A stretch of 64,000 bases of DNA from Candidatus Polarisedimenticolia bacterium. GTDB taxonomy: Bacteria > Acidobacteriota > Polarisedimenticolia > Gp22-AA2. Of this stretch, positions 4,276 through 64,000 are shown piece by piece (the first letter of the stretch is position 1; every line of letters begins with the position of its first letter). The stretch lies in assembly GCA_036005805.1 (NCBI GenBank), contig DASYQE010000086.1, positions 14,014-78,013 on the forward strand. Direction: 5' to 3'. The translations under genes were made by a program, and so were the position numbers. The notes under the pieces are model-generated. The model made no database searches. It had not been told where the DNA came from and saw only the letters and a list, made by a program, of their open reading frames with translations.

Positions 4276-5976
4276 TCATGTCTCCAGAACCATCGGGATG
4301 ATCATCGGCCGCTTGTCGAGGCGCTTGCGGAAGAAGCGCTTCAGCTCCTGCTGGATCATCGCCTTGAGCACGCCGCGATCGGCGCGCTCCTCGGGGGTGG
4401 CCGCCTCCACCGCGCGGCGCACGGTGCGCGTCGCCTCGCGCATCAGGTCGCCGCGCTCGGTCTCGATGACGAAGCCGCGGCTGAGGATCTCCGGATCCCC
4501 TTCCATCTGGCCGCTCTGCCTGTCGATGGCCACGACCGCCAGCACGATGCCTCCCTCGGAGATGTGGCGCCGGTCGCGCACCACGATCTCGTCCACTTCC
4601 TCGAGCGTCCCGTCGATGAACACCCGGCCGGCCCGCACCTTGCCGGTCACCGTCGCCGCGTCGCCGTTCAGCTCGATGACGTCGCCGCTCTCCGCCAGGA
4701 TGATGCGCTTGCGGTCGAGCCCGGTGCGCTCCGCCAGGCGCGCGTGACTGTACAGCTGCCGGATCTCCCCGTGGATCGGGATGAAGAATTTCGGCCGCAC
4801 GAGCGTCAGCAGCAGCTTCAGCTCCTCCTGGCTGGCGTGTCCCGAGACGTGGTACGGCGCCGAGCTGCCGAAAACGACCTCGGCCCCGCGCCGGTAGAGA
4901 TGATTGATCACCCGGTTGATGGCGCGCTCGTTCCCCGGGATGGCGCGTGCCGACACCAGCACCGTGTCGCCGGGATCGAGCGACACGTCGCGGTGATCAT
5001 CGAGGGCGATGCGCGACAAGGCCGACATCGGCTCGCCCTGCGACCCCGCGGCCAGGATCACCAGCTTGTTGGCCGGGATGCGGCGCGCCTCCGACGCCTC
5101 GGCCATCACCCCGGCGGGCACCTTGAGGTAGCCGAGGTCCTGCGCCACGGTCGCCGTCGAGCCCATGCTCGAGCCGCACATCACCACGCGCCGCTTGTGC
5201 CGCACCGCCTGGTCGATCACCTGCTGGATGCGGTGCACGTTGCTGGCGAAGGTGCTGAACAGGATGCGCCCGTGCGCCCGGCGGAACACGCCGTCGAGCG
5301 CCTCGCCGACCAGCCGCTCCGACCCGGTGAACCCCTCCACCTCGGCGTTGGTGCTGTCGGACAACAGGGCGAGCACCCCCTGGTCGCCATAGTAGGAGAA
5401 CGACTGGAAGTCGAAGGTGCGCCCGTCGATGGGCGTCTGGTCCATCTTGAAGTCGGCGGAGTGGATGATGGTGCCGGCGGGCGTGCGGATGGCGATGGCG
5501 AGCGTCCCCGGGATGCTGTGCGTCACCTGGAGGAACTCGACGACGTAGGGGCCGAGGGGAATCTCCGTCCCGGCCTGCACCGGCTTGAGGAGCTTCTCGG
5601 TCGGGAGCCCGTGCTCCTTGAGGCGGCGGGTCGCAAGGCCGAGGGTGAAATCGCTGCCGTAGACGGGGACGCGCACACGCTCGAACAGGTACGGCAGCGC
5701 CCCGACGTGATCCTCGTGACCGTGCGTCAGCAGGATGCCGTGCACGTTCTCGGCGTGCTCGAAGAGCCACGCGAACTCGGGGATGACGACGTTGACGCCG
5801 AGGATCTGCTCCTCGGGGAACATCACGCCGGCGTCGATCACCAGCAGATCCCGGCCGGAGCGCAGGACGGTGCAGTTCAGCCCGAATTCGCCGAGACCTC
5901 CGAGGGGGATGACTTCGAGGCGGTGCTGGGGCTGCCGCGCCCCTTCGCCGCGCAGGCGGGTCGTCACGGCGCGCAT
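4276..5976 (-). CDS. rnj: Ribonuclease J (metallo-beta-lactamase/beta-CASP RNase).
   Basis: A 566-aa ORF with the HGHEDH motif (LLTHGHEDHVGALPYL), a beta-CASP region and an RNase J C-terminal domain. Confidence 0.93.
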   Translation of the reverse strand: MRAVTTRLRGEGARQPQHRLEVIPLGGLGEFGLNCTVLRSGRDLLVIDAGVMFPEEQILGVNVVIPEFAWLFEHAENVHGILLTHGHEDHVGALPYLFERVRVPVYGSDFTLGLATRRLKEHGLPTEKLLKPVQAGTEIPLGPYVVEFLQVTHSIPGTLAIAIRTPAGTIIHSADFKMDQTPIDGRTFDFQSFSYYGDQGVLALLSDSTNAEVEGFTGSERLVGEALDGVFRRAHGRILFSTFASNVHRIQQVIDQAVRHKRRVVMCGSSMGSTATVAQDLGYLKVPAGVMAEASEARRIPANKLVILAAGSQGEPMSALSRIALDDHRDVSLDPGDTVLVSARAIPGNERAINRVINHLYRRGAEVVFGSSAPYHVSGHASQEELKLLLTLVRPKFFIPIHGEIRQLYSHARLAERTGLDRKRIILAESGDVIELNGDAATVTGKVRAGRVFIDGTLEEVDEIVVRDRRHISEGGIVLAVVAIDRQSGQMEGDPEILSRGFVIETERGDLMREATRTVRRAVEAATPEERADRGVLKAMIQQELKRFFRKRLDKRPMIIPMVLET

Positions 5977-6851
5977 TATACGGGGGAGGGCGGCGAGTCG
6001 ATCCGCTTCTCCGGCGGTGATTTCAGCCGCGCGTAGAGCCGCTCGAAACCCTCCGGCGGGACCTCCTCGGGACGGCCGCCCGGATCGATGGCCGCCGCGA
6101 CGAGCAGGGATCGCGCCCGCTCGTGCGCATCGTCTCCTTCAGAGGCGAGCACCCGTGCCAGGTTATTGAGGAAGGTCTTGCGCCGCTGCCCAAAGCACTC
6201 GTGGACGAAGCGCGCGTAGCCGTCCGGGTCGGCCCCGGCCGCCCCGCCGGGGTCGTGCAGCGCCAGGCGGATCACCTCCGATTCCACCTTGGGGCGGGGA
6301 CGGAACGACCCCGGCCGCAGCCGGCGGATCCGCTCGACCTTCGCGAAGGTGCGGCACAGGACCGTCAGGCTCCCGAATTCCTTCGTGTGCGTGGGGGCCA
6401 GGATGCGCTCCGCCACCTCGCGCTGCACCATTACCATCAGGTCCCGGACCAGGTCGTGCCGCGTCAGGTACCTGAGGATGATGACGGTGGCGATGTTGTA
6501 CGGCAGGTTGCCGAGGATCCGGACCGGGTGGCCGGGTCCCGCCCCGGCGTCGGCCAGGAGCCGCTCCGGCTCGAAGGAGAGCACGTCCCCCTCGAGGATC
6601 CGCACCCGCGCCGTCTCGAACTCCTCCCGCAGCGTCGCCGCCAGCTCGGGGTCGACCTCGACGGCCAGCAGCGCGGCGACCCGCGGCGCGATGCGGCGGG
6701 TGAGCGCCCCGTCGCCGGGCCCGATCTCGAGGACATGGTCGCCGGGGGAGGGTCGGAAGGCAGCGGCGATGGCGGCGAGCGCCCCGGGATCGATGAGGAA
6801 GTTCTGTCCCCAGCGTCGTTTGGGCTTGAATCCCGCGGGCCCCAGGCGCAT
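5976..6851 (-). CDS. rsmA: 16S rRNA (adenine1518/1519-N6)-dimethyltransferase RsmA/KsgA.
   Basis: The N-terminal KRRWGQNFL motif, a SAM-binding VLEIGPGDGALT and the NLPYNI motif. Its stop overlaps the rnj start codon. Confidence 0.9.
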   Translation of the reverse strand: MRLGPAGFKPKRRWGQNFLIDPGALAAIAAAFRPSPGDHVLEIGPGDGALTRRIAPRVAALLAVEVDPELAATLREEFETARVRILEGDVLSFEPERLLADAGAGPGHPVRILGNLPYNIATVIILRYLTRHDLVRDLMVMVQREVAERILAPTHTKEFGSLTVLCRTFAKVERIRRLRPGSFRPRPKVESEVIRLALHDPGGAAGADPDGYARFVHECFGQRRKTFLNNLARVLASEGDDAHERARSLLVAAAIDPGGRPEEVPPEGFERLYARLKSPPEKRIDSPPSPV

Positions 6852-52989: not shown

Positions 52990-54575
52990 GGCGTCCCCCG
53001 GCTGGAAGGAGCGGGGCGGCGCACCGCGTCGCGCAGGAGCAGCATGTCGTCGGAGCAGGCGGCCCGACCCCACCAGGCCAGCCCGGCAAAGACCACGCCC
53101 GAAGGCAGCAGACGCAGGACCAGCTCCGCGAAAGCGTCGGCGCGTCCGGCGGCGACCGGCGCCGGCAGGAGCAGCGCCGCGAGCCATCCGACCAGCAGCG
53201 CTCCGAGGCCCGCGGCGAGCGGGGGAGCGGCGGCGCGGGCCGCGTCGACGGTCGTGAGGGCGAGGGAGCGCGAGCGCCGCCCTCCGCACGCGACGAGCCC
53301 GAGGCCGACGAGCGACCCGGTGAGCGTTGCCAGGCCGACGCCGGGTGCGCCGAAGCGCCGCGCCAGCCCGGCCGCCGCAGCGAGCTGGACCAGCGCCCCG
53401 GCCGCGGTCGCCGCCGCTTCGAGCCCGGCGCGCCCGCTGGCGCGCAGGAGCAGCCGCAGGGGGGAGACGACGACCATCGCCGCCACCGCCAGGACGACGA
53501 GACGCGCCGTCGCCACCGTTCCCGCGGGGGCGACGCGCCCGGTCCAGGCGAGGACGAGCAGATCGGGAAACAGCAGGAGCGCGATCACGGGCGGCAGCGC
53601 GAGAAGCGTGACGTAGCGCGTCGACCGGGCCAGCAGATCGCGCAGGCGCCGCAGGTCGTCCCGCACCTCGAGATGTCCCGCGAGCGGCATCAGCACCTTG
53701 AGGGGCAGCGACGCCGCCGTGCCGGCCAGTCCGCCGAGCCGCGCGGCGATCTCGTACGCTCCCGCGGCCGCGAGCCCCGGTCCCGCGACCAGGATGAGCC
53801 GCGGCGCGTGCCCGCCCAGGACCTCGAAGGCGCGCGTGACCTGCACCTGTCCGCCGAAGGCGAGGACGCGCGCGTAGTGATCGCGCGACGCCTGGAAAGG
53901 ACGCACCGCGAGCCCGGCGCAGAGCTTGTGCGCCGCGACCGCCTCCATCAGCGTGACCGAGACCGCCCCGAAGACGGCGGCCATCGCCGGACCGCGCAGG
54001 CCGTACCCGAGGAGCAGGAGCGTCGCCGACAGCAGCCCTTCGCCGATCGCCCCGACGGCGCCGATGCGCGCCAGGAGATCGAGACGCTGCGCCCCGGCGA
54101 CCACGCCGCGATAGGCCGAGAAGGTGCCGCGCAGGAGCACGGTGAGAAGCGTCGCACCCAGCACGAACCCGGACGCGGCCGGGCGCTCCGCGGGGGGGAG
54201 GATGCGATCGAGGAGGGACGGTCCGAGGAAGGCCGCGAGCGTGAGGATCAGCAGCGACACGCCCCCCTGGAAGCCGACGCCGACGGCGAGGGTGGCGTTG
54301 AGATCGCGGTGGTCGCCGCGCGCCAGCGCCTGGGCCGCGAAGCGGCCGTAGGCCGATCCGACCCCGAGATCGAGAAGCCCCGCGGTGTGGGCCACCGACC
54401 AGGCGGCTCCCCACATCCCGAGCCCTTCGATGCCGCAGGTGCGCAGGACGAGGGGCGTCATCAGCAGCGCGACGCAGGCCGAGGCGGCCGCCTCGACGCC
54501 GCTCCACGCCACGCCGCGCGCGGCGGCGCGGCGCTCGCCCGCCCCCGGGGCCGGGATCGACACGCCAGGGCTCAT
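52986..54575 (-). CDS. wzx: Polysaccharide biosynthesis protein/flippase (Wzx-like, MOP superfamily, about 12-14 TM helices).
   Basis: Internal ATG start MSPGVSIPAPG.... The multi-TM profile is typical of O-unit flippases. The listed upstream 271 codons are spurious. Confidence 0.78.
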   Translation of the reverse strand: MSPGVSIPAPGAGERRAAARGVAWSGVEAAASACVALLMTPLVLRTCGIEGLGMWGAAWSVAHTAGLLDLGVGSAYGRFAAQALARGDHRDLNATLAVGVGFQGGVSLLILTLAAFLGPSLLDRILPPAERPAASGFVLGATLLTVLLRGTFSAYRGVVAGAQRLDLLARIGAVGAIGEGLLSATLLLLGYGLRGPAMAAVFGAVSVTLMEAVAAHKLCAGLAVRPFQASRDHYARVLAFGGQVQVTRAFEVLGGHAPRLILVAGPGLAAAGAYEIAARLGGLAGTAASLPLKVLMPLAGHLEVRDDLRRLRDLLARSTRYVTLLALPPVIALLLFPDLLVLAWTGRVAPAGTVATARLVVLAVAAMVVVSPLRLLLRASGRAGLEAAATAAGALVQLAAAAGLARRFGAPGVGLATLTGSLVGLGLVACGGRRSRSLALTTVDAARAAAPPLAAGLGALLVGWLAALLLPAPVAAGRADAFAELVLRLLPSGVVFAGLAWWGRAACSDDMLLLRDAVRRPAPSSRGTP

Positions 54576-55978
54576 GCCGCCACCCGCAGCAGAGGCTTCG
54601 CGTCGGTCTCCCGGGCGGTCCGCTCCAGCTCGAGCGCTGCCGCGGCGAGCGCGGTGAACATCCAGAAGGGCTCCATGATGCGGATGAGCAGGAAGGTGTT
54701 GGTCCCGACGGCGTGGGCGCACAGGCCCGCGAACCCGGCGAGGAGGCCGAGTCCGAGCGCCCGGTGCAGCGGATCGGCCGCCTCCCGCCGCAGCGCCACG
54801 AACAGGCGGCCGCAGCCGGAGAGCAGCGCCAGGAAGCACAGCATCCCGACCGCGCCGATCTCGACCAGGACGCGGAAGTACTGCGCGTCGAGGAAGCCGT
54901 AGCCGGTGACCCCCCAGCCGAGGATGGGGTGGCGCTCGAAGCCGGTGAGCGCCGATTCCCAGGAGTGCAGCCGCGCCGACGACGAGGGGTCGAGGTGCAC
55001 CCGGCCGACCTGGACCGCCTCGGTGCCTTCGGGCGTGAAGGTGTAGCGCAACCGATCCTCGACGCGCGACGGCAGGAGGAGGAAGAGCACCGCCGCGCCG
55101 ACCGCGCCGCAGGCCGCGAGGCGCCCGCGCCGCGGCGACAGGCCCAGCAGCACGGCGAAGGCGGCCAGAAGTCCCAGCCACGAGGAGCGTGACAGCGTCA
55201 GCACCAGCGGCGGGACGGCGAGGAGGGCCAGAACGCCCGCGGCGCGGCGCCACGGCACGGCCGGGGCGTGCAGCGCCAGCGCCGAGGCGATCGCCGTGAT
55301 CAGGACGAGATACCCGCCGAGGGTGTTCGGCTCCCCCTGCCCCCCTTCGAACGGGGCCGAGGGCCGGAGGCCGCGCGGGACCTGCCACCAGGCGTAGACC
55401 ACGATGATCGCCGCCGTCGCGAGCAGCGCCGTGAGGATCCGCCGCAGCCGCTCCGGGGTGCGGACGTGGTTGAGCGTCATGAAGAAGATGAAGAAGTACT
55501 CGACGTACTTGGCGACGTAGCAGAGCCCGACGAGGGGCTTCACGCGTCCGGCCTCGATCCCGAGGAGGGTCGAGCCGAGGCAGCAGGCGACGTACAGCGC
55601 GATGGCGGTGTTGAGGCGCGAGCGGCGGATGGCGCCGAGGTCCTTGTGGATCGCCATGCGCGCCAGCCAGCCGAGGCCGACGAGCAGCAGCACCAGGTCC
55701 TCGGTGCGCAGGATGACGTTGCGCGACGCCTCGAGCCCGCCGCCGGAGCCGGCGGCGCCGAGGGGGATCTCGGGGGACAGGAGCATCGACGCGACCAGGA
55801 TGACGAGCCCCGCCTCGGCATGCGCGAACGCGGCGGCGAACAGCAGCACGGCCGCCGCGGCGAGAAGCGGCTGCGACAGCGGCGCGCGGCCGATGTAGAC
55901 AGCCAGCGGCACCGCCAGCGCCAGGGTGGCGAGCGGCGCCAGCAGCCGGGCGAGCGGGCGGAGGGGCGCGGAGGGCAT
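54572..55978 (-). CDS. wzy: O-antigen ligase/polymerase-family membrane protein (Wzy-like).
   Basis: Internal ATG start MPSAPLRPLARLLAPLATLALAV, preceded by the RBS aggagagg. About 10-12 TM helices with a large periplasmic loop containing HxxxxxxR-type motifs. Confidence 0.72.
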   Translation of the reverse strand: MPSAPLRPLARLLAPLATLALAVPLAVYIGRAPLSQPLLAAAAVLLFAAAFAHAEAGLVILVASMLLSPEIPLGAAGSGGGLEASRNVILRTEDLVLLLVGLGWLARMAIHKDLGAIRRSRLNTAIALYVACCLGSTLLGIEAGRVKPLVGLCYVAKYVEYFFIFFMTLNHVRTPERLRRILTALLATAAIIVVYAWWQVPRGLRPSAPFEGGQGEPNTLGGYLVLITAIASALALHAPAVPWRRAAGVLALLAVPPLVLTLSRSSWLGLLAAFAVLLGLSPRRGRLAACGAVGAAVLFLLLPSRVEDRLRYTFTPEGTEAVQVGRVHLDPSSSARLHSWESALTGFERHPILGWGVTGYGFLDAQYFRVLVEIGAVGMLCFLALLSGCGRLFVALRREAADPLHRALGLGLLAGFAGLCAHAVGTNTFLLIRIMEPFWMFTALAAAALELERTARETDAKPLLRVAA

Positions 55979-55994
55979 CGCGTTCCTCTCCTGT

Positions 55995-58181
55995 CTAGGC
56001 GCTCGAGCCGCGCCTCCCGAAGGCGGCGATCGACGGGGGACCGCTGCGGGCCGCGGCGGCGGGACGCCGCGGCGCGTCGGGAGCGTACGCCGCGTTGAGA
56101 TAGGCCATCTCGGGCGTGTACGAGGAGACCTCCGCACGGACGTCGTTCAGCACGATGCCGCGGATGGTGGCGCGCACCGTGTCGAGGTGCACCTTGGCGC
56201 GCTTCAGCGCCGCGCGGCTGATCCGCCCGAGCTGGTAGACCAGCACCACGCCGTCCACGCGCGTCGACAGGATGGCCGCGTCGGTCACCGGCAGCACCGG
56301 CGGCGCGTCGATCAGGATGACGTCGAAGCGCGAGGCCACTTCCACCACGAAGTCGTTGAACAGCGGCGACGACAGCAGCTCCGAGGGGTTCGGCGGCAGC
56401 GCCCCGGCGGTGAGCACGTGCAGGTTCTCGAGCCCGGCGGAGGTCTGCAGCGCCTTCATGTCGATGCGCCCGAGGAAGACGTCCGAGAAGCGGTGCAGCA
56501 CGTCGTCGAGCCGCGCCATGCCGAGCACGACGTGGGTGAACCCCGGCTCGCGCGCCACGCCGAACATGCGGTTGAGCGTCGGACTCCGGAGATCGCAGTC
56601 CCACACGAGGGTCCGCATCCCCATCTGCGCCATCGCCACGCCGAGGTTGGCGACCGTGGTGGATTTCCCCTCGCCGGGCGAAGCGGAGGTGAACAGGAAC
56701 GTCCGTCCCGCCTTGCCGAGCCGCGAGAACTCCAGGTTGGTCCGCAGCGACCGGAAGGCCTCCGCCACCGGCGACTGCGGCGCGAACTGGGTGACGAGGC
56801 TGGTGAAGCCCTCGAGCCCGGGGTCGGAGGCCAGCGCCGGCTGGCGCTGCACGATGTCCTTGCGCAGGCTGTCGCCGTCCATGTGCGGCACGACGCCGAT
56901 GACCGACAGCCCCAGGTACTGCTCGACGTCCTCGATGCTGCCGATGGAGGTGTCGAGGCTCTCGACGGCGAACGCCGCGACCAGACCGAGCAGCAGCCCG
57001 ACCACGAGGCCGACGAGGGACCGCAGCAGCCGCCCCGGAGCGTGGCGCGCCTCGGCGCGCGTCGCGGTCTCGACGACCGACAGCTCGGTCACCTTGTCCG
57101 CCTCGCGGATGAGCGCCTCCTGGCGCTTGCGGCTGAGCATCTCGTACGCCTCGGCGTTCACCTGCACCTCGCGCTGCAGCTGCAGCAGGCGCTGCTCGGT
57201 GCGCGGGAAGCGGGACAGCTTGTCGTCGAGGAGGGTCTTGCGCGCGTTCGCCAGGTCGAGGGCGGAGCGCGCCTCGCGGCGCAGCCGGTCGTAGAGGCGG
57301 GTGATCTGATCGCCGACCTTCGCCACCTCGGGCGCGTCCGATTTCATGAAGGCCTCGAGCTGGTGGCGGCGGTCCTGGAGCTTGAGGATCTCCTGGCGCA
57401 GCGACTCGAGACCGTCCTCCTGGAGATCGACGAGGAGGAGATCCGGGCTGCCGTCGTCGCCTCCCGCCGACAGGCTCTGCAGCAGGGTCTGGAGCGCGAC
57501 GATGCGCGCCTCGCTCTTGCCCGCCTCGTCCTGGAAGAACTGCACCTCCTTCGCGTCGGGGTTCTTCGCGCCGACGTTCTGCTCCTTGAAGGCGGCGAGC
57601 CGCTCCTCCGCCTCGGAGAGCCGCCGCCCGACCTCGTCCACCTGCGTCTCGACGAACTGGCGTGCGTCGATGGCCTGGCGGTTGCGCTCGAGGGTGTGCA
57701 GGGTGATGTACTCCTGCATGACGGCATTGGCGATGGCGACCGCCTCGTCGGGCGAGCCGCAGGCGGAGCGGATCTCGATGAGGCTGGTGTTCTCGATCGG
57801 CCGCGCCGTGTAGGAGGCGATCACCCCGTCGAGCCGCGCCGACAGCACGCGGTCGGCGAGGACCTCGGGCAGGGCGACGCCGGGATCGATGCGGCCGAGC
57901 CGCTGTGCCGCCTGCAGCGCCACCGGCTTGCTGGCGATGATCTGCGCCTGGGTCGCGAGGTCGTCCCCCGGGCTCCACGAGAAGGTCTCGAGGAACAGTC
58001 CCGCGACGTTGTCGGTGCGGGTCCACTTGACCCGCGCCGCCGCCTCGTAGCTGGTCTGCGCCCGCGGGGTCAGCAGGAGCGTCAGCAGACCCATGAGGAG
58101 GCAGCACCCGGCCACGACGCGCGCGCGCCGCCTCAGGATGCGCAGGTAGTCCTGCAGGTTCAGGTTGTCGCCGGCGCTCAC
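55995..58181 (-). CDS. wzc: Polysaccharide co-polymerase / tyrosine autokinase (Wzc/GumC-like). It has an N-terminal Wzz-type periplasmic coiled-coil domain between two TM helices and a C-terminal CpsD/BY-kinase P-loop ATPase.
   Basis: A 728-aa ORF. Walker A is SASPGEGKSTT, Walker A' is VLIDAPP, and the chain-length-determinant N-terminus is present. Confidence 0.88.
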   Translation of the reverse strand: MSAGDNLNLQDYLRILRRRARVVAGCCLLMGLLTLLLTPRAQTSYEAAARVKWTRTDNVAGLFLETFSWSPGDDLATQAQIIASKPVALQAAQRLGRIDPGVALPEVLADRVLSARLDGVIASYTARPIENTSLIEIRSACGSPDEAVAIANAVMQEYITLHTLERNRQAIDARQFVETQVDEVGRRLSEAEERLAAFKEQNVGAKNPDAKEVQFFQDEAGKSEARIVALQTLLQSLSAGGDDGSPDLLLVDLQEDGLESLRQEILKLQDRRHQLEAFMKSDAPEVAKVGDQITRLYDRLRREARSALDLANARKTLLDDKLSRFPRTEQRLLQLQREVQVNAEAYEMLSRKRQEALIREADKVTELSVVETATRAEARHAPGRLLRSLVGLVVGLLLGLVAAFAVESLDTSIGSIEDVEQYLGLSVIGVVPHMDGDSLRKDIVQRQPALASDPGLEGFTSLVTQFAPQSPVAEAFRSLRTNLEFSRLGKAGRTFLFTSASPGEGKSTTVANLGVAMAQMGMRTLVWDCDLRSPTLNRMFGVAREPGFTHVVLGMARLDDVLHRFSDVFLGRIDMKALQTSAGLENLHVLTAGALPPNPSELLSSPLFNDFVVEVASRFDVILIDAPPVLPVTDAAILSTRVDGVVLVYQLGRISRAALKRAKVHLDTVRATIRGIVLNDVRAEVSSYTPEMAYLNAAYAPDAPRRPAAAARSGPPSIAAFGRRGSSA

Positions 58182-58182
58182 G

Positions 58183-59610
58183 TCAGTCCCCGTTCTTGAA
58201 GTCGTCGATGATGTAGAGCGATTCGATGGTGTCGAGAGCCGGCGCGATGATCGAGAAGACGTCGTGCAGGTGCGCCAGGAAGCCCTTCGAGACGTAGATG
58301 ATGTCGCCGGGCTCGAGCTCGAAGTCGTCCTTCAGGTCCCCGGTCTTGAACAGCTCCTTGAGGTTCGCCGCCTTGAGATCCGGCTTGCCGTCGGCGCGCC
58401 GCTTGATGAGGACGACCTCCTTCGGGTTCGAGCGCAGGCTGAGGCCCCCGGCGCGCGCGATCGCCTCGATCAGCGTCATGCGGTCGAAGATGGTCACGAC
58501 CCCCGGCTGGTTGACCTCGCCCAGGACGTACACCTTGCGCATCCCCATCTGCAGCGACGGCAGGAAGACGAAGTCGCCGTCCTCGAGGGCCGGGTTGTCC
58601 GCGTCGCTGTGGTGGAACACCGCCTTGAAGAGGTTGACGTCCTGCTGGGTCCCGTCGCGCTTGACGATCTGCACGCGCATCAGGTCGGCCTCCGGCGAGG
58701 GGCCGCCGTGCTCCGCCAGGAACGACACCAGGCGGGTCGGACCCTCGAGCGCCCAGTCGCCGGGGCCGCTGTCGGTGCGCGCCGTCGTCTTCACCTCGCC
58801 CATGAGGTGAACCCGGTGGCCCGCGTAACGCAGGACCAGGAGCTCCGTGTAGATTTCCTTGTAGATGCGCGAGAGACGCCCTTCGATGTCCTTCTTGGCG
58901 TCGATGGCGGTCTTGCCGCCGACGGCGATCGACCCGAGCCCGAGGATCGGCAGGAAGGCGGTGCCGTCGCTCTGCACGGTGAGCTGCTGCTCGTCGATCT
59001 TCTCGCCGTCCCAGATGCGCAGGGACAGGACGTCGCCGGGGGCGAAGCGGTAGTCGGGAGCCGGGGCGAAGGTGGTCACCGCCTGCGCGAACGGGCCGAC
59101 GGCGGCGCGCGCCTCGGCGGTGGCGGCGCCCCCGAGCAGGGCCAGCGTGGCGAGGACGGCGGCCCGGCGCAGCAGGCGCGGGCGGCGCCGGCGGATGGCC
59201 AGGCGGAACAGGGCGCGGCGGCGCGCGGCGGCGGAATCGTCGATGGGCAGGGTGCGCCCCTCGCGGAGGACCGCCACCACGCGGCCGAGCAGCTCCTCGC
59301 GCCGGCAGCCGGCGTCGAGGCCCGGCTCGTTGTCCCCCTGCGTGCGGTAGAGGCGTCGCCCGTCCTCCAGGACCACGGTGACCAGGCGGTGCGCGACGAT
59401 CCCCGCGGCGTCGCGGCGCACCAGGATCTCGCCGGGGCGGGGGAGACCGAGACAGGGGGCGACGACGATCCGGTCGCCCGGGACGAGCGTCGGCCGCATG
59501 CTGTCGCCGCGCACCGGCAGCGACACGTCGAGGCCGCCCTGCAGGAGCGCCTCGAGGACCGGTTCGGTCTCGAGCGCGCCGGGCGCCTCGGGCCGCGGCG
59601 ATCCCGGCAT
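58183..59610 (-). CDS. Unusual single-ORF fusion: an N-terminal S24/S26 (LexA/signal-peptidase-like) peptidase domain, then a signal-anchor/TM segment, then a C-terminal Wza-type polysaccharide export domain (Poly_export plus SLBB).
   Basis: It shares a reading frame with the listed 58183..60384 ORF. ATG at 59610 (MPGSPRPEAPG...). The S24-like motifs are VRGDSMRPTLVPGDRIVV, GEILVRRDAAGIVAHRLV and YRTQGDNEPGLD. A signal-like segment RRRRPRLLRRAAVLATLALLGGAATAEA follows. The Wza motifs are PDYRFAPGDVLSLRIW and the tandem SLBB-like region. No canonical start exists for a separate wza. Confidence 0.7.
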   Translation of the reverse strand: MPGSPRPEAPGALETEPVLEALLQGGLDVSLPVRGDSMRPTLVPGDRIVVAPCLGLPRPGEILVRRDAAGIVAHRLVTVVLEDGRRLYRTQGDNEPGLDAGCRREELLGRVVAVLREGRTLPIDDSAAARRRALFRLAIRRRRPRLLRRAAVLATLALLGGAATAEARAAVGPFAQAVTTFAPAPDYRFAPGDVLSLRIWDGEKIDEQQLTVQSDGTAFLPILGLGSIAVGGKTAIDAKKDIEGRLSRIYKEIYTELLVLRYAGHRVHLMGEVKTTARTDSGPGDWALEGPTRLVSFLAEHGGPSPEADLMRVQIVKRDGTQQDVNLFKAVFHHSDADNPALEDGDFVFLPSLQMGMRKVYVLGEVNQPGVVTIFDRMTLIEAIARAGGLSLRSNPKEVVLIKRRADGKPDLKAANLKELFKTGDLKDDFELEPGDIIYVSKGFLAHLHDVFSIIAPALDTIESLYIIDDFKNGD

Positions 59611-59636
59611 GGCTTCGCGATCCAGGCGCGCGGCGC

Positions 59637-61829
59637 TCACGATCGCTCCGTGGGTGTGACGCGGTGGCGGATGTGCAGGAACGGCGCGCGCGCCAGGTCG
59701 ACGAAGCGGCGCTCGGCGCCGACGGCGCCGGAGGCGATCTCGACGCGCGGGCGGAAGTGGTTTTCCTCGTTCTGGGTGACGACGCGGGCCACGTCGCCGC
59801 TCGACAGCTCCACGAGGCAGCCGATCGGGTAGATCGGCACGGCACGCAAAAGCGCCCGGAACAGCAGCGGGCTGAAGCGCTGACCGTGCTGCGCCATCAC
59901 CAGCGACGTCACGTCGTGCAGGTCGAGCCCGCGCTCCCGTCCGCCCTGCTGCAGGCGCTCGGCGAGTGACGCGAGGGCGACCGCCTGGATGCGGAGGTCG
60001 GCGCGGCTGCGTTCGGTCGCCGGGGCGCCCGGGTCGAGCAGGGCGCGCACCTCGTCGATGCGTCCGCGCATCTCCGCTCCTCCCACGCCCAGCCGCTCGA
60101 GCGTGGCGGGAGCGAGCTCCGCGTCGTGCACCAGCGCCAGCAGCGCCGTGGCGGGGCCGTCCTCCCCGGCGCCGAGGCCCGCTGCAAGCCCGCCGGCGAT
60201 GAGGGCGCAGTTGATGGCGTGGCGGGCCGCGTCGCTGGCGCGCGACGAGGCGATGAGGAGCGACGGCAGCGCGGCCTGCGGCGCTTCGGGTCGCTGCGCT
60301 CCCGGGGCGGAGCGCCCCGCGAGGGTGCGCGCGAGATCGGACAGCTCCCGGCCCCGGTTCGTTCCCTGCGCCGCGTCGCGCCACAGCGCGTCGAGCCGCA
60401 GGGCTTCCTCCTCGGTCGGGACCGCGGCCGCGGCGGCGGCCGCTTCCGAGGCGGGCCCTTCGGCGCGCGGCTCGAGGACGGCCGCCACGATGGGCGGGCG
60501 GACGCCGCGCGGTGCGCCCGCGAGGGCGGACACTTCGCGCAGCGATCGCATCGAGCCGGCATCCCCGGGAAGGACCAGGACATCCTCGAACAGCACGTTC
60601 CCGTCCATGACCCGCCGCCAGCCTTCTTCACGCAGGGTCGGCAGGCCGCGATCGAGGCCGTCGAGGCCGGACCAGGCGAAGACACCGGTGACACCCTCGG
60701 CGCCGGTCCGGGCGCAGGCGTCGCAGCCGGCGCCGCGCGGCACGGCGAGGCCGCCGCGTCTTTCGATGTCCTCCATGTCGCGGCGGTGGAAGCCCAGGCG
60801 CAGCGCCCGCTCGGGCGAGAGCGTCGTGGTCGTCCGGCAGGCGCGGCACACGGTGCGGACGAGCCCCTGCGACAGGACCGCCACCGGCACGCCGGGGAGT
60901 GCCGCCGACTCGAACAGGCTGCGCACCCGGCGCGCGCTGGCTTCCGGCTCTCCCGGCGGCAGGCCCGCGAGCACCAGCGCTCCGCCGGCGGCGAGCCGGG
61001 CGGCGAGCGCGGCATCGCGTCCGTCATGAAGCGTTTCGATCAGCACGAAATCGGGGGCCACGGCGCGCAGGCTTTCCGGGAAAGGCCAGTCGGAGAGCCG
61101 CTCGCCGAGCCACGGCAGCGGCCCGGCGGCGCGGGCGCCGATGCGGCCGCCGCGCCGGCCGCCCGCGACCAGGAGCTCCGCCATACGGTCGAGCGTCAGG
61201 GTGCATCCTGACGCGGACCCGGCGGCTACGCCGACGAAGCCCGACGGGCGGTCGAGCGCTTCGGCGACCACTTCGAGCAGCGACGCCGAGAAGCCGAGAT
61301 CGGGCAGCTCGCGGGGTGCTTCGCCGACCGTCCCGGCGATGCGCAGCCGGAACTCGTGGGGCCGCGGTCCGGGCCGGACCGACAGCAGCAGCCGTGCCGC
61401 CCGCTGCGCCCCGGCGAGAGGCACGACGCCCCGGGGGGCGCAGCGGAACAGGGCCGCCATCAGGCCCAGCGCGTCGCGCGGCGCCACCGGGAACGGATGC
61501 TTCTGGCCGTCGGAGCCGATGAGGATTCCCTTCACCCCGTCGCGCCCGCGCAGCAGCACCATCTCGTCGTACTCGCCGTGCAGCAGGCGGGAGAGCGCGG
61601 GCGCGAGCAGGTCGGGGCGCGGAATCGCCTGCGGCCACGAGTCCGGATCGTCCGGCGGGTGCAGCTCCGCCGCGCGCACCTCGTCCTCGGTGGCGGGCAG
61701 GACCACGATCGCCGTGCCGTCCGGCAGCCGGCGTGGCAGCGGGGCGCCGCCGAGGCCGCGCGGCGCCGCGACGAAGACGACCCCCTGGCGCTCCGCCAGC
61801 AGGACGACTTCGGGAGGTCTCTCGCTCAA
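59637..61829 (-). CDS. GspE/PilB-family (type II secretion/T4P ATPase-like) pseudo-ATPase. It has an N2-like domain, a degenerate Walker A, a conserved tetracysteine Zn motif (CRAC...CDAC) and a C-terminal degenerate HD-like domain.
   Basis: TTG start at 61829, preceded by the RBS ggggagg. GspE-like motifs are PDFVLIETLHDGRDAALAARLAAGGALVLAGL (compare the family motif pattern IxVGEIRDxETAxxAxxAAxTGHLV), VGVAAGSASGCTLTL (degenerate P-loop with no Lys), RTVCRACR...GCDACARTG and GVTGVFAWSGLD. The C-terminus has HAINCALIAGGLAAGLG...LVHD but no HHE/GYP. Confidence 0.65.
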   Translation of the reverse strand: MSERPPEVVLLAERQGVVFVAAPRGLGGAPLPRRLPDGTAIVVLPATEDEVRAAELHPPDDPDSWPQAIPRPDLLAPALSRLLHGEYDEMVLLRGRDGVKGILIGSDGQKHPFPVAPRDALGLMAALFRCAPRGVVPLAGAQRAARLLLSVRPGPRPHEFRLRIAGTVGEAPRELPDLGFSASLLEVVAEALDRPSGFVGVAAGSASGCTLTLDRMAELLVAGGRRGGRIGARAAGPLPWLGERLSDWPFPESLRAVAPDFVLIETLHDGRDAALAARLAAGGALVLAGLPPGEPEASARRVRSLFESAALPGVPVAVLSQGLVRTVCRACRTTTTLSPERALRLGFHRRDMEDIERRGGLAVPRGAGCDACARTGAEGVTGVFAWSGLDGLDRGLPTLREEGWRRVMDGNVLFEDVLVLPGDAGSMRSLREVSALAGAPRGVRPPIVAAVLEPRAEGPASEAAAAAAAVPTEEEALRLDALWRDAAQGTNRGRELSDLARTLAGRSAPGAQRPEAPQAALPSLLIASSRASDAARHAINCALIAGGLAAGLGAGEDGPATALLALVHDAELAPATLERLGVGGAEMRGRIDEVRALLDPGAPATERSRADLRIQAVALASLAERLQQGGRERGLDLHDVTSLVMAQHGQRFSPLLFRALLRAVPIYPIGCLVELSSGDVARVVTQNEENHFRPRVEIASGAVGAERRFVDLARAPFLHIRHRVTPTERS

Positions 61830-62869
61830 GACGCCTCCCCGGTGTCCGCGGCCGGGCCGCCGAGCGAGGCCAGCACGCAGTCGACCGCCGAGGCATCGGG
61901 GAGAAACTGCAGGCGTCGCACCGGCACCTGCTCGGCGAGATGCGACAGGAAGCGGACCGCGAACTCCAGGCCCTCGCGCTCCCACAGGGCCGGGAAGGCG
62001 CGCACCATCATCTGCGCCACCGCCGCCGAGGGCGGCAGATCGATCACCCGGTTGCGCGGGGCCTGTTCGAGGATGAAGACCGCGTCGAGCGGCGCCGAGC
62101 CGGGCGACTCGATCCCGGCCTCGCCGTGCCACGGGGTGCCGTAGATGCGCGGACCCGCCGCGTCGGCGCGGATCACGATGCGATCGTCCGACAGGAGGGT
62201 CGTGGCGGGGCGTCCGGACCACAGGCGCGCCGAGGTGCTCTTGCCGGAGCCGCTCGTGCCGAGCAGCAGGATGCCGCGGCCGCGGTGCACGAGGCCGCAC
62301 GCGTGCACCAGCACGCCGCGCCCGCGCGCCAGGCGCGCCAGGAAGACCACCTCATCGAACGGGTAGACGAACGGGTGCATGGTGTCGCCGGCCAGGTGCG
62401 GACCGCCGTCCACCGTCTCGCCGTGTCCCACCGCGTAGTCGTGGTCGAACTCCACCGCGAGATAGGGATTGTGGCCGTAGATCGGCGAGCGCAGCGTCAG
62501 GAGATGCCCGGCGTGCGTCTCCTCGAGACGCCACACCGAGCCGGTGTCGAACACCGTGCGCGCCGCCTTCTTCGGCGGCCGCGGCGACGGCAAGGGCGCG
62601 AGCACGACCGAGGCGCAGTCGAGACCGGCGTCGCGCGACAGGAACGGCTCGTGGGCCGCGTCGGTGACGAGACGGATCCCGGGCTCGGCCGGCGTCACCT
62701 CGAGTCCGAGGCCGGCGATCTGCAGAACCAGCGGGCCCGACGCGTCAGGAGCCACTGTGCGAGCAGAGCGCCGGGGTGCCGGTGCACTTCTCGGACGCGC
62801 CGAGAGGTCCCTGGGTGGTGACTGTCTTGCACGAGGCGAGGACCGCCTCGTCGGGCACCAGGTGGACAC
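61826..62869 (-). CDS. HprK-related P-loop kinase (HPr kinase/phosphorylase C-terminal-domain-like). The start is uncertain: the first 38 listed codons are Ser/Pro/Arg-rich, and an internal GTG near 62755 is an alternative.
   Basis: A P-loop LLLGTSGSGKSTSARL followed by LSDDRIVI, the arrangement diagnostic of the HprK C-terminal kinase fold. The stop overlaps the TTG of the downstream gene. Confidence 0.68.
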   Translation of the reverse strand: MSTWCPTRRSSPRARQSPPRDLSARPRSAPAPRRSARTVAPDASGPLVLQIAGLGLEVTPAEPGIRLVTDAAHEPFLSRDAGLDCASVVLAPLPSPRPPKKAARTVFDTGSVWRLEETHAGHLLTLRSPIYGHNPYLAVEFDHDYAVGHGETVDGGPHLAGDTMHPFVYPFDEVVFLARLARGRGVLVHACGLVHRGRGILLLGTSGSGKSTSARLWSGRPATTLLSDDRIVIRADAAGPRIYGTPWHGEAGIESPGSAPLDAVFILEQAPRNRVIDLPPSAAVAQMMVRAFPALWEREGLEFAVRFLSHLAEQVPVRRLQFLPDASAVDCVLASLGGPAADTGEAS

Positions 62870-62929
62870 GGGTCAGGCGCGGCGGCTGGTAGGCGCGGCG
62901 CGACGAAGGATCGGACGGCTTCCTCGGGA

Positions 62930-64000
62930 TCATCGGGCGGTCTCCGCAGGGGACGGGCGTTCGATGCTGAGCAGGTTCGGGGACTGGGAGGCGGACGGAC
63001 GAGCCGTCTTGCTGCAGCCGGTGGCGCACCCTCCGGCGGCGCACGCCGTACCGGCGCCGGACGGAGCGGGCCGCCGGCTGGCACGGGGCAGGGTCACGCC
63101 CTCGGGCGTCCAGCCGGAGGCGACCTTGTCGGCGTGCGCGAGAAAGCGCGCCGCCCGGGCCGGGTCGCCCGCTTCTCCTTCGAGGAGCGCGGCACGCCGG
63201 TGCGTCAGCTCGCAGAAGTGGGGGATCCACCCGTCGGGGCTGCCGGTCTCCAGGATCGCCGTCGCGGGACAGCGATCGCACAGGGATTTGAGCTCGCAGC
63301 GGACGCAGACGTTCTCCGGGGCGGCGGGGCGCTCGCGCACGGCGCCGACAACCCCGTTCCAGCCTTCGAGGAAGGAGCCGTTGCGCAGATCGTAGCCGTC
63401 CAGCGGCAGCGCCTCGCACGACCACAGCCAGCCGCGCGGATCCACGTGGAACGACTGCAGTCCGGCGCCGCACGAAAGCAGCCGGTCGGTCTTCGGCGTG
63501 GTCCGGACGAACCGGTCGTAGAACCGCTGCCAGTGCGCGCGGCGCTCCGGATCGGCCGCGTCGAGCCCGACGATGTCCGAGGGTGTGGCCCGCGCCGCGA
63601 CCGGCTGCATCGAGCCGTCGAGGCGACCGTGGATGGTGCCGTCGTAGCGGAAGGGCAGCCCGAGCGAGTCGGCCCAGGCGCGCATGGTCGGCAGCTCTTC
63701 GACCAGCCCCTGCATGGCGACCGCCTTGAGCGTCAGCTTCACCCGCCGGGCGTGCAGCCGCTCCACGGCCTCCCGCACCCGGCGGAAGCGCCCCGGCATG
63801 CCGGTCGTCCGCAAGTAGGTGTCGTCCGACATCCCGTAGAGGGTGATCTCGACGCCGAGGGGCGGGTACTCCGCGAACAGGTCGGCGATGCGATCGTCGA
63901 GGAGCGTGCCGTTGGTGAAGACGGTCAGGAGCATGCCGCGCCCCTTGGCGTGGCGGTAGATCTCCGGGAAATCCGCGCGGCTCAGGACCTCGCCGCCGGT
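62930..64000 (-). CDS. Radical SAM / SPASM-domain protein (C-terminal two-thirds). The N-terminus with the CxxxCxxC motif lies beyond the right edge of the window.
   Basis: The reading frame continues open to 64000 (…GGEVLSRADFPEIYRHAKGRGMLLTVFTNGTLL, the core rSAM motif). The SPASM cysteines are SCGAGLQSFHVDPRGWLWSCEALPLD and CVRCELKSLCDRCP. The listed ORF 62930..63934 merely starts at the first internal Met. Confidence 0.8.
   Translation of the reverse strand, partial: TGGEVLSRADFPEIYRHAKGRGMLLTVFTNGTLLDDRIADLFAEYPPLGVEITLYGMSDDTYLRTTGMPGRFRRVREAVERLHARRVKLTLKAVAMQGLVEELPTMRAWADSLGLPFRYDGTIHGRLDGSMQPVAARATPSDIVGLDAADPERRAHWQRFYDRFVRTTPKTDRLLSCGAGLQSFHVDPRGWLWSCEALPLDGYDLRNGSFLEGWNGVVGAVRERPAAPENVCVRCELKSLCDRCPATAILETGSPDGWIPHFCELTHRRAALLEGEAGDPARAARFLAHADKVASGWTPEGVTLPRASRRPAPSGAGTACAAGGCATGCSKTARPSASQSPNLLSIERPSPAETAR

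Follow-up and report, generated by a model that had tools for sequence, protein, structure and literature searches.

An in-frame fusion of an S26B-type peptidase domain to a Wza-like polysaccharide export protein in Candidatus Polarisedimenticolia

The genome region studied, a window of 64,000 nucleotides from a Candidatus Polarisedimenticolia bacterium (Acidobacteriota), contains a gene that encodes in one frame a 135-residue domain of the S24/S26 peptidase fold, an Arg-rich helix, a Sec-type hydrophobic segment and a Wza-like export protein (Table 1). Its product is rather probably a two-part precursor, consisting of a cytoplasmic leader peptidase and a Wza exporter which signal peptidase I would separate. 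The peptidase would act on a small peptide that is encoded, together with its modification enzymes, upstream.

Table 1. Features of the fusion gene and of its neighbours in the window.
Feature	Position	Strand	Details and evidence
Radical SAM/SPASM maturase	62930..64000	minus	ORF; 5' end cut by window end
Precursor peptide, 62 aa, MIPRKPSDPSSRRAYQPPRLTRVHLVPDEAVLASCKTVTTQGPLGASEKCTGTPALCSHSGS	62745..62933	minus	Conserved in 14 loci
HprK-like kinase (ScmC/HprK_rel_B-like), LppK counterpart	61826..62755	minus	HprK_rel_B 9e-10, ScmC 3e-8
GspE/PilB-like ATPase core + HD domain	59637..61829	minus	T2SSE 8e-7; PilF, PilB, GspE structures
Fusion gene	58183..59640	minus	485 aa from GTG at 59640; stop codon 58183-58185
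N-terminal alpha-helix, ETEPVLEALLQGG	59533..59571	minus	AF2 helix; V, L, L invariant
S26B-type (SEC11/SipW/LppS-like) peptidase core	59236..59529	minus	Profile, fold, LppS alignment
Catalytic codons (predicted)	Ser 59500-59502, His 59389-59391, Asp 59314-59316	minus	Alignment
Arg-rich amphipathic helix, SAAARRRALFRLAIRRRRPRLLRR	59164..59235	minus	AF2 long helix 137-172; doubles as signal n-region
Internal Sec-type hydrophobic + c-region, AAVLATLALLGGAATAEA	59110..59163	minus	Hydropathy, conserved pattern
Wza-like export (OPX) part	58186..59109	minus	Pfam, NCBIfam, Foldseek
Linker of the OPX part	59068-59109	minus	Variable, 14-25 residues (predicted disordered)
Poly_export	58855-59064	minus	Pfam; then middle domain
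SLBB	58291-58536	minus	Pfam
C-terminal helix	58216-58269	minus	AF2
Wzc-type co-polymerase/tyrosine autokinase	55995..58181	minus	GNVR, Wzz, CbiA; eps_fam 5e-49, Wzc 1e-53
Wzy_C/O-antigen-ligase-like polymerase	54572..56137	minus	Wzy_C 1.8e-14, synteny; maximum ORF, real start further downstream

The fusion gene and its conservation

Translation of the minus strand from 59610 to 58183 gave 475 codons free of stops in one frame, and all the motifs quoted in the original prediction (RGDSMRPTL, GEILV, AHRL, QGDNEPGLD, RRRRPRLLRR and AAVLATLALLGGAATAEA) were recovered. The ATG at 59610, initially taken as the start, is in frame, but a likelier start is the GTG located ten codons upstream. This GTG overlaps the stop of the preceding gene (GTGA) and occupies the position at which the fusion homologues begin with MSAxR and, as a consequence, it was adopted as the probable start of the gene.

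The fusion is genuine. The full-length architecture was found in about 88 protein clusters (P0001-P0088; 51-100% identity). In addition, 17 of the 18 related loci that contain the junction, which are independent assemblies from many samples, showed an unbroken frame from the SM and HR motifs to the Wza part. The one exception, locus L028, is a MAG carrying a frameshift just after the peptidase fold. This locus and a few short database entries (P0040 and P0089-P0093) could be taken as signs that an assembly or sequencing error had created the fusion. However, P0040 is short because its contig ends there, the short entries are either contig-edge truncations or derive from one frameshifted MAG, and an error as the source was discarded on the basis of the full-length clusters and the continuous frames.

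It had also been stated that no ATG, GTG or TTG precedes the signal-like segment from which Wza could be made separately. This holds for codons 113-177 (numbered from the ATG), but not for codons 111 and 112, which are GTG, lie inside the peptidase fold and follow a GAGGAG sequence that could favor initiation at this point. Against this, GAGGAG encodes a conserved Arg-Glu-Glu/Asp. Moreover, among 19 related sequences, the 30 codons that precede the hydrophobic segment contained start-type codons only sporadically; no conserved internal start for Wza was identified in them and several loci had no candidate at all. Both the artefact and a separate Wza from an internal start are thus largely refuted, and we give them hardly any credence.

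Conservation was 0.61 in the peptidase, 0.61 in SLBB and 0.68 in Poly_export, falling to 0.37 in the h/c-region and 0.25 in the linker, two segments which vary in the manner of signal peptides and linkers. The fusing of neighbouring genes can be selectively neutral and, therefore, the fusion in itself is no proof of a functional link between peptide and polysaccharide. No published description of a Wza-peptidase fusion was found, in agreement with the original prediction, and in the accessible parts of the literature nothing matched either the combination of SLBB with Peptidase_S24 or peptidase fusions in OPX surveys.

The peptidase domain and its predicted catalytic residues

The assignment of the N-domain to the S24/S26 fold was confirmed by profile and structure comparisons. 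Among the NCBIfam models it matched TIGR02228 (4e-7) and SipW (2e-4), while the best matches of a PDB profile search were the human SEC11C (5.7e-7) and SEC11A (1.5e-5), with Ser, His and Asp aligned. Human SEC11A/C were the best matches by fold as well, the top Foldseek entries being 7p2p and 7p2q. LexA proteins gave weaker matches than SEC11 in the PDB profile search (0.02-0.03 versus 6e-7), so that of the initial label "LexA/signal-peptidase-type" only the signal-peptidase half should be retained. The presence of His in place of the general-base Lys, already pointed out in the original prediction, was true of all 88 homologues covering the position, and these likewise kept the Ser and the Asp. 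A self-cleaving domain of the LexA/UmuD type was consequently rejected, given the His for Lys replacement and the better matches to SEC11 and LppS.

LppS is an RRE-dependent, SipW-like (archaeal-type SPase I) RiPP leader peptidase of the linear polyphosphorylated peptide (LPP) clusters of Bacillota; leader peptidases of the SipW-like kind have been known only since 2026 (Popov et al., 2026; PMC13381572). BLASTP aligned it with the N-domain at 2e-14 (29% identity over 99 aa) and hhalign gave 97.5%. Residues S47, H84 and D109 of the fusion (GTG numbering) align with S29, H68 and D93 of LppS, whose mutation abolishes leader cleavage (PMC13381572). The His-Asp distance is 25 residues in both proteins and that between Ser and His is 37 in the fusion versus 39 in LppS. 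In both, the N-terminus lacks a membrane segment and forms a helix, and the C-terminal tail is hydrophobic or basic. From these alignments, the N-domain is assigned to the SipW-like RiPP leader peptidases of the LppS family, and its residues from about 24 to 135 would form a cytoplasmic, SipW/SEC11-like Ser-His-Asp peptidase of the LppS kind. Of the two options originally proposed, a Ser/His enzyme as in archaeal and ER signal peptidases or an inactive module, the first is favored by the complete conservation of the triad and its alignment with SEC11A/C and LppS; catalytic activity of the domain is inferred from this conservation and from LppS homology. The AF2 helix at the N-terminus, in which V18, L19 and L22 are invariant, is the counterpart of LppS alpha1. 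As the latter contacts the RRE (PMC13381572), the helix could by analogy bind the RRE as well.

The members of MEROPS S26B, among them SEC11A/C, SipW and archaeal signal peptidase I, share with the domain the SM...HR...GDx5D motifs and the use of Ser-His-Asp where bacterial enzymes have a Ser-Lys dyad. S26B enzymes are held in the membrane by an N-terminal anchor and process signal peptides on the trans side (periplasmic or lumenal). Unlike them, the N-domain of the fusion has no such anchor, is predicted to face the cytoplasm and scored below the TIGR02228 cut-off. Its active site is therefore predicted to be cytoplasmic, on the membrane side opposite to the cleavage site, and a bona fide signal peptidase cutting the Wza signal in cis was discarded on this predicted topology.

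The curated cut-offs were missed by the N-domain for TIGR02228 (29.9 bits versus 51.85) and SipW (20.8 versus 190), and the Pfam match to Peptidase_S24 was weak (1e-3) and below threshold (19.2 versus 23.3). The low TIGR02228 and Peptidase_S24 scores count against an active leader peptidase, and such sub-threshold values would fit a non-catalytic module whose only role is to dock a partner, such as the RRE-precursor complex, at the membrane. Among relatives that stand alone, the closest (P0123 and P0125-P0131) have lost the Ser and/or the His, with Arg or Phe at the His position and Ala, Thr or Cys at that of Ser, so that catalysis is dispensable for at least some members of the clade. Inactive signal-peptidase homologues are known and one of them, SipA of S. 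pyogenes, was found among the fold matches. However, the motifs G-x-S-M-x-P, H-R and G-D-x5-D were present in every member of the fusion family covering them, despite about 50% divergence, and the degenerate relatives show that these positions drift once the constraint is lifted. A pseudo-peptidase in the fusion is for these reasons regarded as very unlikely.

The peptide cassette upstream of the fusion

The window includes the kinase, the precursor peptide and a part of the radical SAM gene alone, because it ends at this point; the PqqD and NTP_transf_5 genes lie beyond its end and are known from orthologous loci alone. In the 12 loci with enough flanking sequence, genes for NTP_transf_5, PqqD, radical SAM, peptide and ScmC were found upstream of the fusion in every case. 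The precursor gene overlaps the stop of the radical SAM gene (ATGA). In the 14 loci in which it is conserved, the peptide presents YxxPxL (14/14), which conforms to the RRE-binding leader motif [Y/W]xxPx[L/V/I], as well as LVPDEAVLASCK and three Cys, and it invariably ends in Ser. The maturase orthologue of locus L001 matched Radical_SAM and SPASM-type maturases. For the maturase gene, tblastn gave 61% identity. For the HprK-like kinase, homologues of which match Pfam ScmC in the related loci, a candidate GTG start was identified at 62755. The following gene, encoding the GspE/PilB-like ATPase, has a TTG start with a GGAGG site, an HD domain (6e-4 to 2e-5 in orthologues) and is translationally coupled to the fusion gene.

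The Pfam and TIGR families of the cassette are those that define LPP clusters. Both systems have a PqqD RRE, an HprK-like kinase and an NTP_transf_5 protein, the cassette PqqD of an orthologous locus aligns over its full length with LppB, both precursors carry a YxxPx[L/V] leader and both gene sets are embedded in a polysaccharide locus. LPP and paeninodin clusters were reported inside capsule loci, their role being left open with the remark that it is "tempting to speculate" about biofilm (PMC13381572). The presence of an LppS-family domain at the end of an LPP-like cassette gives this domain a probable substrate, the Cys-rich precursor of 62 residues, whose gene is the third one upstream of the fusion. 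The cassette's PqqD-type RRE would present the precursor through its YxxPxL leader, and cleavage would take place inside or next to the invariant LVPDEAVLA/SCK block.

The fusion also differs from LPP systems in several aspects. An internal signal links its peptidase in frame with a Wza-like protein, it comes from Acidobacteriota (Ca. Polarisedimenticolia) and not from Bacillota, and its cassette adds a radical SAM/SPASM enzyme and a three-Cys core. The cassette lacks an MsbA-like exporter; no ABC exporter was detected within 10 kb in L001 or L003, which counts against the explanation that we favor. So do the leader, where the junction is PDEAVLA/SCK instead of the FET/xxS of Bacillota LPPs, the FET motif is absent and the Tyr-Ser distance is one residue off that of LPPs, and the GspE-HD gene, placed between cassette and fusion in most loci.

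An active peptidase with another substrate could also be envisaged, in which a regulatory cleavage of Wzc, the GspE-HD protein or a regulator took place and the peptide cassette was incidental. The peptidase domain is indeed fused to a polysaccharide protein, the neighbours coupled to it in translation are polysaccharide or regulatory proteins, S24-family domains are often regulatory, and in L022 the fusion is kept while the radical SAM gene is missing. However, every locus with sufficient flanking sequence has the cassette upstream, with precursor and PqqD, and the domain shares homology with LppS, for which RRE-dependent leader cleavage has been proven. Locus L019 has no GspE-HD gene, and there the kinase gene is immediately followed by the fusion. 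In addition, relatives of the domain occur in the same cassette without polysaccharide partners: a stand-alone one directly after ScmC in L005 and, in other lineages, two fused to the N-terminus of an ABC exporter (P0165 and P0264) inside PqqD-ScmC-...-NTP_transf_5 cassettes. We consequently consider such a different substrate to be unlikely.

The ABC-exporter fusions, by analogy, support a cytoplasmic and export-coupled placement of the peptidase. Like PCATs, which have a C39 domain, P0165 and P0264 bear a cytoplasmic leader peptidase at the N-terminus of an export component of the same pathway, and their S26B-like domain and PqqD-ScmC-NTP_transf_5 cassette are those of the fusion. Unlike in PCATs, the partner in the fusion is a periplasmic/outer-membrane polysaccharide export protein and not an inner-membrane ABC pump, the two halves are predicted to lie on opposite sides of the inner membrane, and the enzyme is serine-type rather than a C39 cysteine enzyme.

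Finally, the SynChlorMet (Scm) and HPr-rel-A cassettes (TIGR04248-04251 and TIGR04352-04355) likewise combine a PqqD-like chaperone, an HprK-like protein and radical SAM/SPASM enzymes. ScmC, ScmD, ScmE and HprK_rel_B were the best named matches for the neighbours of the fusion, all of them far below the equivalog cut-offs. Unlike at the fusion locus, neither an S26-like peptidase nor an OPX fusion is described for these cassettes. A literature search on SynChlorMet retrieved nothing, and one for PqqD, HPr kinase and polysaccharide together yielded a rumen lasso-peptide survey alone.

The internal signal, the export part and the predicted topology

The export part carries the Poly_export and SLBB domains that had been proposed. 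Above threshold, Pfam identified SLBB_2 (8e-22; 77.5 bits, cut-off 27), SLBB (2e-17) and Poly_export (1e-12; 48.1 bits, cut-off 28), and Foldseek aligned the OPX part with E. coli Wza (2j58) at 6e-20 over 300 columns, almost the whole of Wza. The NCBIfam models EpsE, pepcterm_export and EpsY also matched, all below cut-off. AF2 predicted with low confidence a helix at residues 458-475, and no Pfam match was obtained in the OPX part to Wza_C, the helix that spans the outer membrane in Class 1, so that this part may belong to Class 1 or to Class 3. The fusion shares the Poly_export-SLBB organization of E. coli Wza and the OPX proteins of Classes 1-3 (Saidi et al., 2022; PMC9603273) and, like theirs, its gene adjoins genes for a Wzc-type kinase, which starts 1 nt after the fusion stop, a Wzy-like polymerase and a flippase. 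In contrast to these proteins, it has neither a lipoprotein signal nor an ordinary one at its N-terminus, its signal being internal and located after about 150 residues of an enzyme predicted to be cytoplasmic.

The signal-like segment begins at residue 160. A single strong hydropathy peak was observed in the whole protein (residues 161-175) and none before the catalytic domain, and the 25 residues that precede the h-region hold 11 positive charges and one negative. This single peak and the charge bias on its N-terminal side support the topology originally predicted, with the peptidase in the cytoplasm, a signal or anchor, and Wza in the periplasm. In stand-alone homologues, the Arg-rich helix has its counterpart in the basic tail at the C-terminus. 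At the joint, this basic helix of the peptidase would run straight into a former Wza signal peptide. The internal signal would insert N-in/C-out during synthesis, so that the Wza part crosses the inner membrane via Sec and is freed, probably by signal peptidase I, after a candidate A-x-A site, while the peptidase remains at the membrane on its cytoplasmic side, made where the exporter is made and in equal amount.

Alternatively, the fusion might remain uncleaved. The hydrophobic segment would then be a permanent signal-anchor from which the Wza ring hangs at the inner membrane through the N-terminal linker, with the cytoplasmic peptidases beside the Wzc kinase ring, resulting in a single assembly across the membrane in which peptide maturation is tied directly to the machinery of export. 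Poly_export (D1) of Wza faces the inner membrane and Wzc, and in the fusion it is found only about 14-25 disordered residues after the hydrophobic segment. Furthermore, no lipobox is present to hold the protein in the outer membrane, wzc begins 1 nt past the fusion gene, and the fusion has been retained over about 50% sequence divergence. A lipoprotein Wza was itself discarded, since the Cys that many homologues have in their h-region is preceded at -1 by Leu and does not belong to a lipobox.

Nevertheless, several data point to a cleavable signal rather than a stable anchor. The uncharged run is short (16 residues here; 14-22 across homologues, with a mode of 19, c-region included, and always ending in small-x-small), and the segment is weakly hydrophobic (mean Kyte-Doolittle 1.87 over 15 residues), Ala/Gly-rich and interrupted by Gly-Gly. 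Gly at about -5 was conserved in 64 of 89 sequences and Ala at -1 in 68 of 89, within a conserved small -3/-1 pattern. In addition, the export part resembles a full-length outer-membrane Wza, the predicted C-terminal helix included, and the unfused relatives have ordinary N-terminal signals. Judged on these sequence features, cleavage by signal peptidase I is probable, and an uncleaved fusion is possible but doubtful.

With respect to the peptide itself, HprK-like kinases and PsmN-type transferases install phospho-hexose on lasso peptides. The fusion could be speculatively read as a "Rosetta stone" which places the peptide within the polysaccharide pathway. The leader would be removed at the export machine, and the Cys-cross-linked peptide, bearing a phospho-hexose on its invariant C-terminal Ser, would prime, anchor or cap the polymer that is exported by way of Wzc/Wza. 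In another version, the uncleaved fusion would form a single trans-envelope complex whose ring of cytoplasmic peptidases gates export. We consider these proposals improbable but, if true, either of them would mean a peptide-linked exopolysaccharide system of an undescribed kind.

With this fusion, the range of the SipW-like peptidase family is seen to include Acidobacteriota, as is that of LPP-like cassettes, which here contain an additional radical SAM/SPASM enzyme. It also shows that a folded enzyme, predicted to be cytoplasmic, can precede the secretion signal of an OPX protein, an organization absent from the accessible parts of the published OPX surveys, and the signal peptide may at the same time tether a second enzyme to the membrane. 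The link between peptide cassettes and polysaccharide export recurs across phyla and in this bacterium it is hard-wired in one polypeptide, which makes the fusion a concrete handle on the role of these peptides.

Reading frame and conservation of the fusion gene

Translation of positions 58183..59610 on the minus strand gave 475 codons with zero stops, and every motif quoted in the original prediction was present in it. The true start is probably a GTG at 59640, since this codon and the stop codon of the gene before it overlap (GTGA) and the homologues begin there with MSAxR; the gene would therefore be 58183..59640 (-) and encode 485 aa. Two numberings, offset by ten codons, are consequently used (ATG, from 59610, and GTG). 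Besides the export domains (see table), Pfam gave a weak Peptidase_S24 match at residues 14-73.

A survey of public genomes for the same fusion, which had been proposed as a check, recovered the full-length architecture in 88 clusters of 51-100% identity (search of 5.8 billion proteins), labelled mostly Acidobacteriota or Ca. Polarisedimenticolia where a label was given, and yielded 18 family loci from a scan of species-representative genomes. In 17 of the 18 loci containing the junction, the G-x-S-M-x-P and H-R motifs lie in a single uninterrupted frame with the Wza part, the only break seen being a frameshift directly after the peptidase fold in locus L028, and the homologue P0040 was short only because its contig ends. 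The in-frame fusion that had been predicted is thus genuine and conserved. Mean pairwise identity was 0.61 in the peptidase core, 0.68 in Poly_export and 0.61 in SLBB, whereas at the joint it fell to 0.37 (hydrophobic segment and c-region) and 0.25 (linker). Therefore, purifying selection acts on both halves, and the joint varies as a signal peptide plus linker would.

The L028 frameshift (5480-6120, at GRVT/G...) comes from a single soil MAG of 2016 and may reflect either misassembly or a genuine split. Five loci from SMAG bins (L007, L009, L010, L014 and L018) were 55-95% identical to the window and labelled Verrucomicrobiia, Cryosericum, Dongiaceae, Binatia and Patescibacteria; they are probably mis-binned Acidobacteriota contigs.

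Features of the fusion protein, its neighbours and its ABC-fused relatives
Feature	Position	Basis or remark
Peptidase fold	residues 25-132	AF2 model, whole protein
One long helix	residues 137-172	AF2 model, whole protein
Disordered linker	residues 174-188	AF2 model, whole protein; before Wza domains
Poly_export	residues 183-252	Pfam, above threshold
SLBB/SLBB_2	residues 359-440	Pfam, above threshold
C-terminal helix	residues 458-475	AF2 model, whole protein; low confidence
GspE/PilB-like + HD protein, about 730-740 aa	window 59637-61829 (-); L001 7779-10004	translationally coupled to fusion gene
62-aa precursor-like peptide	window 62745..62933 (-); L001 6149-6337; 12 further loci	conserved in 14 loci
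S26B-like domain N-terminal to ABC exporter (ABC_membrane + ABC_tran)	P0165 = L029 8001-10217; P0264 = L030 1860-4121	

Predicted catalytic type and relatives of the N-terminal domain

The best named models for the N-domain were TIGR02228 (archaeal-type signal peptidase I, 4e-7) and SipW (2e-4), both under cut-off. Among solved structures, a profile of 20 family members retrieved human SEC11C (5.7e-7) and SEC11A (1.5e-5) at the top, LexA being far weaker (about 0.02), and the SEC11 motifs SM, HR and GDNNxxDD aligned with the Ser, His and Asp of the fusion family. Invariant or near-invariant positions in an 89-sequence alignment include G35, S37, M38, P40, D46, H74, R75, G92 and D99 (ATG numbering), the triad being S47, H84 and D109 in GTG numbering. 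The N-domain is thus an S26B-type Ser-His-Asp fold, and the Ser-Lys LexA/LepB type was discarded. Of the LexA/signal-peptidase-type label first given to it, only the second half stood, and the option of a Ser/His enzyme of the archaeal/ER kind is favoured. The AF2 model (mean pLDDT 85, core >90) had its best fold matches in 7p2p and 7p2q, with LexA and lambda cI next.

At E <= 1e-10, a profile search detected 2111 N-domain relatives among 1.84 billion representative proteins. Most stand alone, with 140-200 residues and SM...HR...GD...D motifs; they lack a membrane segment at the N-terminus and end in a basic or hydrophobic tail. In P0165 and P0264, encoded in PqqD-ScmC-[fusion]-NTP_transf_5 cassettes, the domain precedes an ABC exporter as in PCAT proteins, but with a serine peptidase in place of the C39 cysteine peptidase; this speaks for a cytoplasmic location and also for a tendency of the domain to join an export component. 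In the closest stand-alone relatives (P0123, P0125-P0131), the Ser (by Ala, Thr or Cys) and/or the His (by Arg or Phe) has been replaced; these proteins possibly represent pseudo-peptidases of a second, reduced cassette. They were observed at L005 1418-1852, L006 546-983 and L004 97-561; an ScmC-like gene directly precedes them in L005 and L006, and the short L004 contig has no upstream gene. Domains of this type also occurred with a Propeptide_C25 region (P0198, 655 aa), with a GNAT acetyltransferase (P0218, 310 aa) and at a C-terminus (P0214, 551 aa).

Internal signal and topology

Hydropathy of the whole protein showed one strong peak, at residues 161-175 (GTG numbering), and no hydrophobic segment ahead of the catalytic domain. 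Of the residues flanking the peak, the 25 on its N-terminal side include 11 with a positive and 1 with a negative charge, and the 25 on its C-terminal side 2 of each. The positive-inside rule is well established, and by it the peptidase is predicted to be cytoplasmic and the Wza part periplasmic, in agreement with the location originally proposed for the peptidase-like part.

The uncharged run is short, Ala- and Gly-rich, and spans 16 residues in the window (mode 19 when the c-region is counted). Its end has the pattern small-x-small; 64/89 sequences have Gly at about -5, and 68/89 have Ala at -1. The run resembles a cleavable type-I signal more than a stable anchor, and Wza is probably released by signal peptidase I; permanent tethering of an uncut fusion protein is the less likely alternative. 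The export part matched 2j58, the Wza of E. coli, across 300 columns (E = 6e-20), and unfused distant relatives begin with ordinary signal peptides or lipoboxes. Midway along the hydrophobic segment (ALLCALG), many homologues (e.g., P0042-P0084) conserve a Cys that is outside any lipobox.

Separate synthesis of Wza had been considered impossible from ATG, GTG or TTG upstream of this segment. This held for codons 113-177 (ATG numbering) and failed for GTG codons 111 and 112, inside the peptidase fold. Across the family loci, no start-type codon was found at a conserved position within the 30 codons that lead up to the hydrophobic segment, and several loci had none.

Gene neighbourhood and relationship to LPP clusters

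In orthologous loci with called genes the order is NTP_transf_5, PqqD, radical SAM, 62-aa ORF, ScmC (HprK-like), an optional response regulator, the 740-aa T2SSE-like protein (PilB/GspE-like ATPase core about residues 107-390, HD domain about 505-550), the fusion, Wzc, Wzy_C, flippase and glycosyltransferases. By tblastn it was the same in 12/12 loci whose flanks were long enough, and in the part of it that the window covers. L019 lacks the T2SSE-like gene, so that the fusion comes immediately after the kinase gene, and L022 lacks the radical SAM gene. In the latter (1247-1868, between PqqD and the precursor), the first core Cys of the precursor is also replaced by Arg (ASRKND...).

The precursor gene overlaps the radical SAM stop codon through ATGA. 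Its consensus, ...RRxYxxPxLxRVxLVPDEAVLASCKxxxTxGPxGxxxKCxGxPxxC(S/F/W)xxxS, comprises the leader motif YxxPxL of lasso/LPP type, the LVPDEAVLASCK block, which is invariant, and three Cys; the Ser at the C-terminus is invariant too.

Linear polyphosphorylated peptides (LPPs) were described in Bacillota by Popov et al. (Nat Commun 2026, PMC13381572), with clusters harboured in capsular polysaccharide loci. Their core genes encode the SipW-like "SpI" leader peptidase LppS (TIGR02228), the discrete PqqD-type RRE LppB, an HprK-like kinase, an NTP_transf_5 transferase and an MsbA-like exporter, and their leaders carry YxxPx[V/L]. Cleavage by LppS needs LppB, is abolished by each of S29A, H68A and D93A, and the N-terminal alpha1 helix of LppS touches the RRE-leader sheet (PMC13381572). 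LppS (Supplementary Data 1 of PMC13381572) was 29% identical to the window N-domain over 99 residues (E = 2e-14) and matched the fusion-family profile with 97.5% hhalign probability, its S29, H68 and D93 coinciding with the family's Ser, His and Asp. In addition, LppB aligned end to end with the PqqD protein of the locus, and an Acidobacteria stand-alone homologue from SSN cluster 3 of that study was 36% identical to the N-domain.

The following mechanism, which goes further than fold, motifs, homology and context, is inferred. An ancestral LppS-like gene with a terminal basic helix would have preceded a wza with its own signal peptide, and loss of the stop and start codons would have merged the helix with the signal n-region; this joining of neighbouring genes may have been neutral. 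The product would insert N-in/C-out, with the Wza part exported and the peptidase kept at the membrane on its cytoplasmic face. In that position, together with the PqqD RRE, it would remove the leader near the invariant PDEAVLA/SCK block, and the core would be modified by the radical SAM/SPASM, HprK-like kinase and NTP_transf_5 enzymes. HprK-like kinases add phosphate to Ser, and pseudomycoidin needs the PsmN transferase for the attachment of hexose to its phospho-Ser (PMC6993621); an obvious candidate acceptor is the invariant Ser at the C-terminus. A peptide that forms part of the exported polymer, or an uncleaved fusion protein that forms a trans-envelope complex, has a low probability.

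The supplementary files of PMC13381572 do not mention Poly_export or SLBB, the OPX survey (PMC9603273) does not mention peptidases, and a literature search for SLBB together with Peptidase_S24 found no paper. The overall interpretation advanced at the outset is supported and the finding is genuine. The N-domain is a member of an already known family; what is new is that an internal signal joins it in frame to an OPX protein, that LPP-like cassettes, here including a radical SAM enzyme, extend to Acidobacteriota, and that such cassettes are tied to polysaccharide export in a second, independent phylum.
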